From Octopus sinensis (taxonomy: Eukaryota): 64,000 nucleotides of DNA. Below, in pieces: positions 1,161 to 37,290 of this stretch. Position numbers and translations under genes: made by a program. The stretch's first letter is position 1; each line of letters opens with the position of its first letter. The notes under the pieces are model-generated. The model was not told where the DNA came from and searched no databases. It worked only from the letters and a program-made list of their open reading frames with translations. Location of the stretch: positions 65,658,001 to 65,722,000 of the forward strand of contig NC_043000.1 in assembly GCF_006345805.1 (NCBI RefSeq). Direction: 5' to 3'.

Positions 1161-1293
1161 ATATATATATATATATATATATATATATTAATAATAATAA
1201 TAATATGACAACAAAAGAATGAAAGAGATATCGATATTATGTAAATAGAAGAGTTTATCTATGATATAATATGTGACAATTAGTCGGTTGCCA

Positions 1294-1356
1294 TAATAAA
1301 ACTCAGAGTTTCGGATATCGAGGCGGAAGTCTGCTCCGGCATCTCGTCAGTTATTA
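1294..1356 (-). ncRNA. Type I hammerhead motif, left arm of cassette 1
   Basis: Minus strand TAATAA-CTGACGA-gat...atcc-GAAACTCTGAGTT-TTATTA; perfect 6 bp stem I, irregular base of stem II. Confidence 0.65.
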
Positions 1357-1819
1357 AGACAAATAAAAATGCTATGAAAATGACCGTTAAATAAAGGGAA
1401 ATTACTATGAAGATGACCGTTAAGACAAAAGAGCTATGAGAATGACCGTTAAATAAAGGAAAATTACCCGAAAAGGGAGAAAGTAAAAATCTTGATGAAG
1501 GTAAACTCACGCTCATAGAATCCGCGTATGCGCGCATGTACGTATATACACACGCGCGCACGCATACCCACGAGCATGAGCATATATGTATATGCTCACT
1601 CACACCCGCGGTGAGCATGTGTGCGTTTCACGTGAGTGTGAGTGAGCATATACATATATGCACAAGCACGTGGGTGCGCGTGCGCGCGTGTGTATGTATG
1701 TACATGCGCGCATACCAGTATTCAATGAGCGCGGGTTTATCTTCGAGCTTTTTACTTTCTCCCTAGTTGGGTAATTTCCCTATATTTAACCGTCATTTTC
1801 ATAGCATTTTTGTTTGTCT

Positions 1820-1865
1820 TAATACTGACGAGATACCCCGACATCCGAAACTCCGAGTTTTATTA
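1820..1865 (+). ncRNA. Type I hammerhead motif, right arm of cassette 1
   Basis: TAATA-CTGACGA-gataccccgacatcc-GAAACTCCGAGTT-TTATTA. Confidence 0.6.
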
Positions 1866-1939
1866 TGGCACCCGACTAATGTCATATTATATATATATAT
1901 ATATAATATATATATATATATATATATATATATTAATTT

Positions 1940-2246
1940 GCGCGATAAGTAGCTTGCTTATCAACTACAAGGTTGTGGGTCCAGTCCAACTGCCTGGCAC
2001 CTTGGGGAAGTATATATATATATATATATGTTTGTGTGTCTGTGTTTGCCCCCCCCCCCACTATCGCTGGACAACCGATGATGGTGTGTTTACGTCCTCG
2101 TAACTTAGCAGTTCGGTAAAATACCCCGATAGAACATGTGCTAGGCTTACAAAGAATAAGTTTGGTGTCGATTTGTTCGACTAAAGGCGGTGGTCTAGCA
2201 TGGTCGCAATCAAATGACTGGGACAAATAAAGGAATAAAAGAAGAA
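1940..2246 (+). mobile_element. tRNA-derived SINE, family B (internally deleted)
   Basis: AAGTAGCTTGCTTA..GGCACCTTGGG head and CGACTAAAGGCGGT..CAGCATGGCCGCAGTCAAATGACTGAAAC-type tail shared with many copies in the window. Confidence 0.8.
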
Positions 2247-2735
2247 TATATATATATATATATATATTATATATATATATTATATATATATTATTATATA
2301 TATATATTAATTATATATACGTACATATATTAATTATATTATATATATATTATTATATATATATATTAATTATATATACGTACATATATTAATTATATAT
2401 ATATATATATAATTATATATATACGTACATATATTATTATATATATATATATTAATTATATATATATATATTATTATATATATATATATTTATTTATTTA
2501 TTTATTTATTACATATATAAATGTATATTAATTACATATACATATTAATCATATATATATATATTATATGTATACATAAATACCAATTAAGGACTGAACA
2601 CGAAAAGTGGACAGTCAACATGCTAGATATAGACGTCAAATCGCCATTCACCACAAAAGATTATGTTCTCAGATCAAACTCAGCACAAAACCATAGCAAT
2701 AAACAAGTGAAAAATATACGAAATAAAATAATTAC

Positions 2736-2799
2736 CCATGTACTAATTAGTTTCGGCTGTTATTTTCCGCAAGGAAAACTGCAGCCATCATCAGCATGG
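2736..2799 (-). ncRNA. Type I hammerhead ribozyme, left arm of cassette 2
   Basis: Reverse complement of the 3247-3308 motif with intact core. Confidence 0.85.
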
Positions 2800-33310: not shown

Positions 33311-33713
33311 TTAAATATGTGTGCTGTTAAAGACATGGAACGTTTTCCAAATCTTTATTTCAAATATGAACATTTCTAAACGTCTCTGGAAATATTTTGA
33401 TACTTAAGTCCATCTATGTATATATGTTACAAACTGTAAGAAACAGTTTTGCACCTAAGCGGCAAGAATTTAGCATAGGGTCACATCTTTTCTATGAGAT
33501 ACAAGGCTATGTGTTTATTAAGAAAAATATTATTAATGTTTTTGTATTTTTAAACACTTATTGGTCAAAACTTCACTTTTTGTTTAGTATTCACTTCCAT
33601 TTTGTATGTGCGTGTATGTATTAAGACAATGATTTCTTTTATCGCCAAGTAAAATATTATTAGCCACTCATATTTTTTTATAGTATTCATTGCATTCAAC
33701 ATGTCATGTACAT

Positions 33714-35374
33714 TAGAGTAGAGCGAAAAAGGTACTTTTTACACAAATTTTCGAAATATGTTTTTAAGAATATATTTTTCATTGCAGAATCCTTTAGAAA
33801 CAACCGCGTCAAAATCTGACATGCTTAGGTTTAATTCTCCAGGCTCCCGCAGCCCACTTAAAATTTTGAATAATGAGCAAAAAATCAATTTATAACACGT
33901 TTGCCGTTCCTCATTTAATTTTTACTTTCAGTGTTACGAATTGATTTTCTTTTGTGAAATTTTTAAAAAAACAAGAGTATTAAAATTTTAAGCTTTAAAA
34001 TTTATATCTTCAAGCTCCGCAACGAACTTGAAATTTCGAAATTATCTGAAATAAATAGACTTTTTAACTTTGTTTTCTTCATTATTTTTAATACTAGGTC
34101 ACCAAATATATGTGTGACATGAGGTCTAGATTACACACACATTAAAATAAAATTACGTATAAACCAATTTTTGATTCTTGACACATTTTGGTGATAAAAA
34201 TAATTAACATTTCCAATTTATTCGAAATAATTCATTCCTTTTCGTTCCAGTTATAAAGCCAATCAATTCTTTTCGTAGACGAGAATTAGCATCTCACTCT
34301 CAAATAAAGAATGGAACAGTCAAAGTTTTGTTGTTTTGGAAATTCCTAAAACGACATAATGCTAATTGTTTGTTATGTTCAAAATAGCAAAAACTCTCTA
34401 ATCAACCTCTGAACGTTCTGTTTAGAAACTGCCAATGATAATTTTCGATTTGTCTATTAATCCAGTAAAAAATCTTGCTCTCTCTGAGGTACTTTTTTGC
34501 CTCTACTACAACCGCAGTTTTTAAAGGAGTTGCACTTGTCACAGGAAATGTTAAATAAATCTTTGGTTGTATTGTTTTTAAATACATTACAATTTGTTTG
34601 AATCAATGGCACATTTTTTTCTATTTTTCTCAGATTTTAATAATGCTTGGTACTTTAGACAAAAGTTTAGGATTTTCGGTTTAACTGACTCAATCGTAAC
34701 ACAAGCGATGGGTGCCTTTTGCCAAAGAAGAATTAATTTTTTCTGCTACAATCTTGACAATTTGTTTAATTGAAGGATCTTACATTCTTTTCTTTTTCTC
34801 GTTCAAATAAAACGCATTTTAGTACGTCGTTGTAAGTTGGCAAAACTCACTTGCTAAGAGCACATGGAATACCAAATATTGGGCATTCAGTATCATGACG
34901 CGTTATTGTAAACAACATTAAATTTAACATGATCATTAATGTTAATACAATGGCGTAAAGTCAAGGTACAAAGCAGGGAATTTCACACGCGTATGACGTA
35001 CGTCCACACGCAACGATCGTTGCAGCGGCATTGGAGAGAAGGTCACACTCCTGTTCTCTTTATAGTCAATACGGAACCTCAAGATATTAGTTAATTGCAT
35101 TGACACTTGGTATGCAACCTCTTAAAGATACTATATATACTGTACTGTTTTGCATTCTGCTATGTAGAAATATATATTTGTTATGACTAATAATCCGTGA
35201 AATCCAAAATTCGACCAAAAATAGTGATGTTTAAAATTTTCAATTGCGTTACGGAGTCTACAAAACATATTTAACCGCAAAGTTATTTATATACCTGTCT
35301 TTTAATCCTAATTCGCGACAAAATATCGATTCTTGGTTACCAATTTCGAAAGTTGCATTTTTCGCTCCAACCTA
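33714..35374 (-). mobile_element. Internally deleted hAT-superfamily (hATm-like) transposon
   Basis: TIRs TAGAGTAGAGCGAAAAA / TTTTTCGCTCCAACCTA; 8 bp TSD ATGTACAT/ATGCACAT; minus-strand remnant CPIFG..LPTYNDVL..LWQKAPI..LFNISCDKC..CGC..KVP..FLLD at ~34400-34900. Confidence 0.75.
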
Positions 35375-36692
35375 ATGCACATGTAATGTACTTAAAAGGT
35401 ACACACAATTGTTATTTAATTTTTAAAATTTTAATTACATGTAACTTCAAAAAATTTAATGTTGAAAGGTAAAAATCCTATTGAATATCATATTTAATTA
35501 TGAACTAAGTAAATTAGAAGTGAGCTTGTCCATGTTACTTTCATGTACTTATGTAAATATCAAAATGTATTTCTCAAAGTATATTTTGATTAACGGCAAT
35601 TAATTCTGTGCGAGTCCTTTTAAAAACAATTTGTTTCATTCCTTTAAAACATGTTATAACCAATTGGTTATAAACAACTAATTTTGGCTGGAATGTTTGC
35701 ATAATAGTTAGAGCGTTGTTGAAATGCCTTACAGCATTTCTTCATGCTCGCTGAATTCAAATCTCACCGAGACCAATATCTACCACTTAATCTATCTCAT
35801 AAAACACTAACAGATTAAGCATCTAGAACAGCTAAATATTTGATGCATTTATTTTAATGGCATTCCCAATATGCTACATTGAAGATTTCTCAATGGTCAG
35901 TTAGCGCGTAAATATATAGATATATTATTTTCTTTTACTCTACTCAAGGTCATGTAATGCAGTGGAAGACTTTTACTAGATCAGTTCGATCTAAATAGTA
36001 TCACTGGCACAAAATTAATTTAGTGGAACACACAATAACTACCATTTAAATTTAAAGTAAGATAAACCTACAGTTACAGACTTCAGGAAGAAATTCAACA
36101 TAATGGATACTGCAACAAACGTAGCTGAGACATAGAATGAATTGAAAACCTCAATTTTGAATGATGCTTAGAAAAATATATTGCCTGACTGCCTTCGTGA
36201 CTTTACAAGTTTTCTACAAGCTGTTAAGAACAAGAGCAAGCTGAGAATATAGATGACAGTGCGGAAAATTTATCAACTCCACTTAAACTAAGCTAACAGA
36301 ACATTGCTAAGGGTTGGCACTTATAGAGGAAGTTCTGCAAGTTATTGCTGATAGGAGACCTAATCGTGTATATAACATGAAATTATTGAAAAAGGAATTT
36401 ACAATGAAATGTTCCTACACTGAAGAGCTGACACACTGTAAACAATACTCAAGTAGATGTTCATGATGATGGACTATAAGATAAGAGGCAGTGTCCTTCT
36501 TGCTCCCAGTAACCACTCATTCCACTCCCCTCCCTCAAACAGTTGTCAACCTCTTTTGTGGTAAGAACGTACTCTGTTATGATATGATTCTTCTATATTC
36601 TTAACGTATTTCTCATCGAATGCTTTTATATATATATATGAAAAAACAAGTCAAAAATAGAAAATGCTAAGATAATTTTATAGTGAATCTTT

Positions 36693-36730
36693 CAGTACCG
36701 GTTTCGGTCATTTGGAGACCTTTTCAACTG
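36693..36730 (-). ncRNA. Minimal hammerhead with U3-A8 core, left arm of cassette 5
   Basis: Minus strand CAG-TTGAAAA-GGTC tccaaat GACC-GAAA-CCGG-TA/CTG; palindromic ACCGGU. Confidence 0.75.
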
Positions 36731-36901
36731 TAACGATTAAATAATTAAATTTAGAAAAATTAGAAGAAAAGTTTTTTTAAAAGAATATTTCTGTAGTAGT
36801 GTTCAGATATAAGTAGCATTCTGCCTTTCACTGACTCCCTTGTTTGCACTTTTAAAAAAACTTTTCTTCTAATTTTTCAAAATTTAATTATTTAATCGTT
36901 A

Positions 36902-36939
36902 CAGTTGAAAAGGTCTCAAAATGACCGAAGCCGGTACTG
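36902..36939 (+). ncRNA. Minimal hammerhead with U3-A8 core, right arm (A15.1 to G)
   Basis: CAG-TTGAAAA-GGTC tcaaaat GACC-GAAG-CCGG-TA/CTG. Confidence 0.6.
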
Positions 36940-37290
36940 AAAGATACACTATAAAATTATCTTAGCATTTTCTATTTTTGACTTGTTTTTTCATATATAT
37001 CAACTCGTGTGTTCCTTTCCACCCTTATACATATAGATATATATATATATATATATATATATATATATATAATACATATATATATATATATATACATATA
37101 TATATATATACATATATCATAATAATATATATATATAATAATATATACATATATATATAAAATTATATATATATATATATATATATTTTATAATATAATA
37201 TTTTTTAACCAAACGGAAACAAAAAACAACAACAATGGAACAATTACAGTATTATTATTAATAGGCGCTCAGGAAAAGGAAGCAGGGAGG

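Follow-up and report, generated by a model that had tools for sequence, protein, structure and literature searches.

Previous studies describe insertions of endonuclease-containing (EN+) Penelope-like elements (PLEs) as inverted, 5'-truncated copies with a one-sided tail of 30-40 bp and a bias toward (TA)n (PMC8557442). Head-to-head PLE palindromes have been read as products of self-priming (PMC3846280), and the Penelope of D. virilis has inverted terminal repeats (PMC2377424). What is said here of the cited papers holds for the portions of them that we compared. The origin of the inverted repeats and tails of PLEs, and the enzyme that moves the retrozymes, are both posed as questions (PMC8557442, PMC11167929, PMC7229834, bioRxiv 10.64898/2026.07.22.740005). 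We analyzed a 64,000-nt stretch of Octopus sinensis DNA (RefSeq assembly GCF_006345805.1, contig NC_043000.1, positions 65,658,001 to 65,722,000, forward strand; hereafter the window) that holds five inverted-repeat cassettes with hammerhead motifs in both arms, and searched for their relatives in the 2.72-Gb assembly. Comparison of the copies makes it probable that four PLE families and one hammerhead repeat without an open reading frame (ORF) were inserted by priming at two sites, from both sides, on one RNA. Head-to-head inverted pseudo-long terminal repeats (pLTRs), the one-sided tail, the (TA)n bias and opposite-strand hammerhead pairs have already been published; what our literature search did not return is that ORF-less retrozymes, namely cassette C2 and a family with a 535-nt monomer, carry the full PLE insertion footprint.

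The cassettes resemble EN+ PLEs in 5'-truncation, in the head-to-head inverted copy, in the tail at one end, in the (TA)n preference known for Neptune, Hydra and Naiad, and in the pLTR hammerhead (PMC8557442, PMC3846280, PMC2377424). They differ in that the tails span ~30 to 160 nt instead of 30-40, and in a counted pairing of a short with a long end (83/88) and arms without overlap, neither of which was met in the PLE accounts compared. The PLE remnants of Schistosoma share opposite-strand hammerheads 100-700 bp apart, a U3-A8 core, an extra nucleotide after A9 and a palindromic stem III, but the compared part of that account describes no polarity, ends or target, and the stems II of C3 reach 50-55 nt here (PMC4209133). 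Animal non-LTR retrozymes likewise consist of AT-rich monomers in tandem that lack ORFs and carry a single type I hammerhead; they occur at many dispersed loci, with target duplications >4 bp and a suspected dependence on PLEs (PMC7229834; bioRxiv 10.64898/2026.07.22.740005). In contrast, the genomic copies of the octopus families have 505- and 535-nt monomers and form two-way arrays, with a one-sided tail and two fixed ends. MRC1 and other non-autonomous elements of Chlamys also travel as PLE passengers, have pLTRs and insert head to tail in multiple copies, but resemble autonomous families at the 3' end, whereas C2 has a hammerhead and no partner was found for it (PMC8557442).

Five palindromes with hammerhead motifs in one window

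An earlier note on this DNA had claimed five inverted repeats without common primary sequence, and self-BLAST bore out both points: all five coordinate pairs were recovered (C1 = 1264-1892, C2 = 2580-3556, C3 = 5073-6234, C4 = 7861-8312, C5 = 36632-37000), with no match between cassettes at E<0.01 and word size 7. The outer ends at (TA)n and the polarity, minus in the left arm and plus in the right, also stood in 5/5 cassettes. The places were thus right, but the family-derived one-sided tails had been missed in C1, C3, C4 and C5. The revised anatomy, in window coordinates, is as follows.

1160-1199, no strand: (TA)n followed by an (ATT/AAT)n tract, to the left of C1
1200-1587, minus: C1 left arm, long end, tail ~1200-1263; Hydra-clade PLE 3' untranslated region, contiguous with the ORF end in L122, L128 and L133
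1300-1350, minus: C1 left type I hammerhead, passes the strict descriptor
1654-1892, plus: C1 right arm, short end, then (TA)n 1888-1932
1825-1859, plus: C1 right hammerhead with an intact core; stems I and II have deletions
2570-2582, no strand: left copy of the 13-bp target-site duplication of C2
2583-3020, minus: C2 left arm, short end; piece of the 505-nt tandem retrozyme monomer
2741-2794, minus: C2 left hammerhead with a palindromic stem III and an additional U following A9, passes the strict descriptor
3021-3041, no strand: C2 inter-arm junction, 21 nt, AT-rich
3042-3552, plus: C2 right arm with the long end, comprising roughly one whole monomer, tail at 3461-3552
3252-3303, plus: C2 right hammerhead, predicted cut after 3303, passes the strict descriptor
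3553-3565, no strand: right copy of the C2 target-site duplication, continuing into (TA)n 3579-3918
4915-6038, minus: C3 left arm, the long arm with the long end, tail 4915-5072; (TA)n 4893-4914 outside
5132-5205, minus: C3 left hammerhead, core intact, base of stem II weakened
5810-6034, minus: final 75 codons of the PLE ORF of the C3 parent, coding for the C-terminus of the endonuclease, 96% to L160
6034-6234, plus: C3 right arm with the short end; flanked outside by (TA)n 6235-6262
6102-6175, plus: C3 right hammerhead, passes the strict descriptor
7861-8079, minus: C4 left arm, short end, Neptune-type PLE pLTR; (TA)n 7838-7859 outside
7974-8005, minus: C4 left hammerhead-like motif, U3:A8 core, weak stems
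8090-8348, plus: C4 right arm, long end, 36-nt tail 8313-8348; (TA)n 8349-8362 outside
8163-8195, plus: C4 right hammerhead-like motif, U3:A8 core, weak stems
36638-36851, minus: C5 left arm with the short end, the pLTR coming from a second PLE of Neptune type; flanked outside by (TA)n 36627-36638
36696-36727, minus: C5 left hammerhead, U3:A8 variant, passes the strict descriptor
36849-37030, plus: C5 right arm, long end, tail ~37001-37030; (TA)n 37038-37071 outside
36905-36936, plus: C5 right hammerhead, GAAG for GAAA, a core lesion

The relaxed type I motif combined CUGANGA or its U3:A8 variant UUGANAA with GAA(A/G), a short palindromic stem III and UH; the earliest strict descriptor, which lacked the U3:A8 core and the bulged stem II, missed most arms and was relaxed twice. 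The window gave 12 matches to the relaxed motif against 1.08 +/- 1.16 (maximum 5) in 50 shuffles, and ten of the 12 are the ten arms. A type I hammerhead in both arms therefore holds at the relaxed level (10/10), but the stricter three-stem descriptor was passed by only five arms (C1L, C2L, C2R, C3R and C5L). The core is CUGANGA in C1-C3 and the U3:A8 covariant in C4 and C5, and both C4 arms are the weakest, with a mismatched stem II closure and a bulged stem I. Among the 150 Rfam matches listed, of 181 for the window, no hammerhead appeared, only microsatellite-driven miRNA matches. Across 999,800 evenly spaced genome bases, the strict descriptor gave 26 matches against 0-3 in five shuffles, and the closest TA tract lay downstream rather than upstream in 17/22. 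This sampled DNA held four loci with a clear opposite-strand partner, one of them belonging to the 535-nt retrozyme family, as well as one self-overlapping and one ambiguous locus.

Ends, polarity and target sites of the insertions

Searches with the arm families gave 824 to 3406 first-look candidates each, of which the best 40 per search were scored; individual loci carry L numbers. All six families end at two fixed 3' ends, one short and one long, with a tail of ~65 nt in C1, ~90 nt in C2, 158 nt in C3, 36 nt in C4, 30-36 nt in C5 and 127 nt in the 535-nt family. The ends were flanked by TA in 36/51 cases for C1, 32/32 for C2, 43/46 for C3, 36/36 for C4 and 47/50 for C5, some of the remainder being read-through copies, which sustains the claimed (TA)n targeting. 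Pairs were formed from adjacent TA-flanked ends only, with the window cassettes included and unpaired and non-TA ends left out; an all-against-all pairing was dropped, as it was swamped by TA-like matches for C4. The ribozymes faced outward in all 38 pairs of C1, C3, C4 and C5, in 42/42 two-way C2 loci and in 12/12 loci of the 535-nt family (two one-way loci and two distant relatives left out). Together with the four clear pairs in the sampled DNA, 4/4 outward, these counts extend the non-random polarity seen in the window to the genome. A short end was paired with a long end in 34/38 pairs of C1, C3, C4 and C5, in 38/39 of C2 and in 11/11 of the 535-nt family, or 83/88 where chance would give about half; the long end sat left in 26/46 and right in 20/46. 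With the one-sided tail and the inverted, 5'-truncated, head-to-head copy, C1, C3, C4 and C5 have the form of EN+ PLE insertions.

A loose test for target duplications was uninformative (12/69 against a 9.7% null). The test designed after that result was seen was restricted to loci where an interruption of the TA tract adjoins the junction, and the interruption was duplicated across the insertion in 7/12 informative loci, one of the 12 rows having picked an internal end, against 11/840 mismatched flanks. The duplications are 13-16 bp long (span as measured 13-17), and that of C2 itself (2570-2582 and 3553-3565) is among them. It is scarcely credible that the palindromes are assembly or library artefacts made by foldback reads. 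They come from assembled sequence and sit in AT-rich DNA that is hard to assemble, yet their arms differ in outer end, length and letters, their junctions vary between loci, their polarity is fixed by the biology-bearing strand and target duplications flank them.

Several observations weigh against a uniform two-ended footprint. Five of the 88 pairs join two long or two short ends, and three further C2 loci have one end off both sites. The all-against-all pairing gave inward pairs between neighboring insertions at the complex loci L119, L144, L046 and L158, and among the first 100 of 1353 pattern matches, which include 16 close opposite-strand pairs, one pair of a related variant faces inward. 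All seven target duplications are in retrozymes, with 0/2 among the informative PLE loci, and young copies dominate the loci because the best 40 candidates per search were taken. The single inward pair of the related tail-motif variant lies on G000 contig C1 at 118331567 (+) and 118332127 (-).

PLE parents and ORF-less retrozymes

The PLE origin proposed for the arms fits C4 and C5, whose parents have a reverse transcriptase (RT) and a C-terminal endonuclease, as well as C1 and C3, whose parents by their motifs probably have both, but not C2, an ORF-less tandem retrozyme. In the case of C5, the arms flank, in inverted orientation, a 780-amino-acid ORF with RT, zinc finger and GIY regions (L152-L154 and L157); L152 matches RVT_1 at E 3.6e-8 and GIY-YIG weakly, at E 0.034. 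The C4 arms are direct pLTRs around the ORF of a related element in L155, which matches GIY-YIG at E 1.9e-6 and is 51% identical to L152 in the RT part. The C4 and C5 parents have the CX2-5CxxC linker and DKG of the Neptune clade, and the C5 parent also has GxKF; by these motifs, both are Neptune-type PLEs. An upstream ORF is present in both (L152:1046-2125 and 2065-4404; L155); for the C5 parent, several copies share the end point of this ORF, which overlaps that of the RT in a different frame. An overlapping upstream ORF is drawn for some PLEs in Fig. 1 of PMC8557442.

The C1 arm follows an ORF end with a CxCX5C linker, C-terminal CxxC and CxH in L122, L128 and L133, motifs that mark the C1 parent as a Hydra-clade PLE. 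The C3 arm also follows an ORF end, which the long arm retains, with DKT, RWL (for RWK), CxxC (CALC) and CxH (CPH). Neither L160 nor L038 shows the CxCX5C linker in the C3 parent, and the endonuclease follows an Asn-rich stretch there instead; because of this absence, the C3 parent is, by sequence, filed as Hydra-like only and not as Hydra. Pfam gave no match for the C3 parent pieces or for L135, and the YRDD, YIGAS and C-terminal Cys motifs of the C1 and C3 parents, which are 31-44% identical to each other, were read by direct inspection. The cysteine linker has been proposed as a (TA)n guide, yet 43/46 ends of C3 are at TA although its parent (L160:2116-3702, L038:87-1046) is without it.

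Copies whose pLTR reads through the long end into the ORF start were found for C5 (L151, L103), C4 (L155, L065) and C3 (L034, L161), and none for C1 among the loci examined. The palindromes are one point in a range that runs from stumps to full-length elements, which argues that the architecture itself is the known insertion form of PLEs; for C1, C3, C4 and C5 this is almost certainly the case. The palindromes had been called non-coding, which fails for C3, where 5810-6034 (-) encodes the end of a PLE ORF.

C2 is a 505-nt tandem monomer with a GC content of 35%, a longest ATG-initiated ORF of 87 amino acids and a hammerhead core intact in 111/121 monomers. It occupies 52 dispersed regions, 42 two-way and 10 one-way, with up to ~17 monomers per locus and a dimer period in the longest array. 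Tandem type I hammerhead monomers, the lack of coding capacity, GC <50% and a target duplication >4 bp make C2 an animal non-LTR retrozyme by anatomy. Its monomer exceeds the 150-450 bp first described for retrozymes, but circles from 150 to over 1000 nt are allowed in the Discussion of PMC7229834. The second ORF-less family, with the 535-nt monomer, was found at L290 (G000 contig C1:135001500) in the random sample and at L321-L349 by pattern search. In the compared parts of PMC7229834, PLEs are a strong candidate for the retrozyme carrier and the words 'inverted' and 'opposite' are absent; in those of bioRxiv 10.64898/2026.07.22.740005, 'tail' is absent and 'inverted' occurs only in a reference. 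The portion of PMC11722881 compared added nothing on two-way retrozyme arrays or end pairing. Our literature search returned no account of two-way retrozyme arrays or of an end-pairing rule, and Evgen'ev and Arkhipova 2005, Pyatkov 2004 and Arkhipova 2006 may describe tail pairing.

The published PLE dependence of retrozymes rests on co-occurrence and pLTR similarity, whereas here it rests on the insertion footprint, with no pLTR relative found. Sensitive BLAST against all loci showed no PLE ORF attached to C2 in the 52 regions, none was attached to the 535-nt family in the loci examined, and no PLE pLTR carried the tail motif of C2 and the 535-nt family (1353 pattern matches, 30 loci examined). 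These negatives weigh against a PLE carrier; the tail-motif search returned other ORF-less relatives, also without an attached ORF, which does not imply that a partner is absent. The tail of the 535-nt family shares a motif with C2 and three ORF-less relatives (L067, L257 and L309), a candidate protein-binding signal. No RNA data set was on record as holding C2, and contigs from runs guessed to be RNA were not counted as evidence: pieces from two studies start at 3304, the predicted cut, one of them preceded by 6 unaligned letters, and the monomer is closed by a 536-nt contig, which a DNA array would also give.

Two other origins of C2 have to be weighed. One is minisatellite-like growth on the spot, with unequal crossover expanding a solo pLTR into an array, as in the local amplification scenario in the Discussion of bioRxiv 10.64898/2026.07.22.740005. 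The monomers are indeed more alike within a locus than between loci, and one array reaches ~17 monomers with a dimer period, but the family is spread over 52 dispersed regions, a single head-to-head junction has arrays to its left and right, the two outer ends keep to fixed sites whatever the monomer number, and the duplications flank the whole array. We consider such an origin very unlikely, though the longest arrays may have grown locally after insertion. Equally improbable is carriage by the protein of a long interspersed element (LINE), such as RTE, CR1 or an R2-like element, with twin priming, the likeness to PLEs being a convergence on TA targets. LINE ORFs are common in the loci and in the window, LINEs are named beside PLEs as candidates (PMC7229834), and no PLE partner was found for C2; however, C2 matches four PLE families here in its two fixed internal starts, its one-sided tail and its overlapping head-to-head arms, and such a tail has been called unique to PLEs (PMC11167929). 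C2 is thus best read as a retrozyme with a complete PLE footprint, probably carried by a PLE protein.

Arm comparisons and a probable priming on one RNA

In C2, the left and right arms differ by 0.76%, monomers within an arm by 0.71% and loci by 1.49%. Left and right were closer than different loci in 33/35 C2 loci and in 10/10 of the 535-nt family, and they share locus-private variants, which suggests that both arms of an insertion were copied from one template. Unequal arms and variable inner ends, together with parents that are RT elements, led us to reject a reading as miniature inverted-repeat or other DNA transposons. The ribozyme cut was likewise rejected as the template end: only 3/91 C2 arms end within 8 nt of it, and 69/91 cross it, so the template was uncut or rejoined RNA.

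One template would also serve a different route, in which a single cDNA (or antisense RNA) primes itself and folds back (PMC3846280), and the endonuclease trims the hairpin at a TA-like site and leaves the one-sided tail (endonuclease resolution, PMC8557442). This route agrees with arms more alike within than between loci, with short palindromic overlaps at junctions, with equal inner ends in 8/38 C2 arrays and in several C3 and C5 cassettes, and with the TA-like sequence at both fixed ends, which could be nuclease sites. However, a copy cannot outreach its template, yet the short-ended arm reaches further 5' in 6/11 C3 cassettes, and the arms have no common sequence in six insertions (L047, L056, L045, L177, L081 and contig C1:24948339). 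Among the C2 arrays, the short-ended arm reaches further in 18/38 and the long-ended arm in 12, the other 8 being equal. The longer short-ended arms and the non-overlapping arms therefore disfavor DNA foldback, barring later deletion; in L047, L056 and L045, the short-ended arms stop within 2087-2089, the usual inner stop of the family, which a later central deletion would rarely spare. We regard foldback as unlikely.

Instead, we favor priming from both sides at two sites of one RNA. A PLE endonuclease-RT would cut (TA)n on both strands with a stagger of ~13-16 nt, and because the tract is self-complementary, the two cut 3' ends would be alike. Such ends may pair with short UA-rich patches that follow both RNA start sites, and two RT molecules would then act on one uncut or circular RNA, each side priming at a different fixed site. 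Both cDNAs would extend toward the RNA 5' end, round the monomer in the case of a circle or multimer, until they stop and are joined head to head; C2 would be mobilized in trans by a PLE protein. The earlier note had both sides of a break extended from the RNA 3' end, of which the two-sided extension stands as the likelier course, but the start is neither at the 3' end nor at the same place: each side begins at its own fixed internal site, and the two sites are separated by 30-160 nt. In the TA-patch test, which covered C2-C5 and the 535-nt family, TA-like 7-mers lay within <=6 nt of the start sites in 8/8 cases for C2-C5, and in C5 these are two of only three patches in 400 nt.

The Poseidon_Ac enzyme in vitro cuts and extends both strands, uses two internal RNA starts and accepts uncut RNA (PMC11167929). 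The octopus insertions are like it in the two internal RT starts that bound the tail, in the extension of both strands and in the uncut template, and a protein dimer is predicted there. They differ in using one site per side, with TA-like patches at both sites in four families, whereas the Poseidon_Ac start sites are alike on both strands and without homology to the cut DNA. The latter counts against the proposed priming, as do four points from the octopus loci: the 535-nt retrozyme has no TA patch at the long site and one 10 nt off at the short site; equal inner ends (8/38 in C2, several in C5) are also what foldback predicts; a later central deletion could yield non-overlapping arms; and gene conversion could account for the likeness of the arms.

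A bolder version, possible rather than probable, has a PLE protein dimer grip one circular retrozyme RNA at two fixed UA-rich sites, pair either cut TA end with one of these sites and roll round the RNA from both sides until the copies collide, so that whole two-way arrays are pasted; the same step would explain all inverted pLTRs and one-sided tails of PLEs. The inner ends of C2 cluster at the two start sites (35/91, p 1e-6 against a uniform distribution), with windows chosen afterwards and AT-rich microhomology as a confound. If the circle version is true, this clustering would be the mark of the collision.

In the RNA sense, every ribozyme precedes the start sites by 60-260 nt, and this is simply why the ribozymes face outward. 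In read-through transcripts, the antisense arm precedes the sense ribozyme, and in minimum-energy folding the sense ribozyme is paired with the far arm over 31/35, 52/52, 70/74, 31/33 and 31/32 nt in C1 to C5; since it is buried almost fully in all five, the long hairpin is predicted to beat cleavage. Palindromic short stems III have been tied to dimeric activity (PMC4209133), and together with the far-arm pairing they lead to the prediction that a palindrome cleaves weakly. The palindromes are likely by-products of integration and not a selected ribozyme switch.

Surroundings and significance

Four of the five cassettes fall inside 8.4 kb (window 1-8400), where many TA tracts lie near them, and the 64-kb window has 7 strict hammerhead matches compared with 26 in the 1 Mb sampled. 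Solo hammerheads at 4067-4114 (-) and 43767-43842 (+), which the earlier note did not list, represent additional repeat families; both precede a TA tract by 40-150 nt, and relatives are present at other loci, in part as outward pairs (L006, L313). Short palindromes at 7717-7849, 4303-4393, 12278-12395 and 40675-40789 gave no hammerhead match; the first is flanked by TA, adjoins C4 and is possibly a stump of a PLE that does not extend as far as the ribozyme. The window also contains a decayed PLE with a GIY-YIG remnant (22751-25066, -), further PLE-like fragments (17119-18006, +), a LINE RT (27645-32405, +; RVT_1 E 9e-34) and a transposase remnant (12718-13818, -), which by eye we take to be pogo/Tigger-like.

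The palindromes per se are an ordinary PLE product. The pairing of a short with a long end and the non-overlapping arms sharpen the question of how PLEs form inverted repeats and tails into a prediction that suits the in vitro assay already in use. Retrozyme arrays with a PLE footprint and target duplications are direct genomic evidence on the enzyme that moves retrozymes, and the minimal passenger for a PLE protein would be an ORF-less RNA whose cis signal has two sites and seeks (TA)n.

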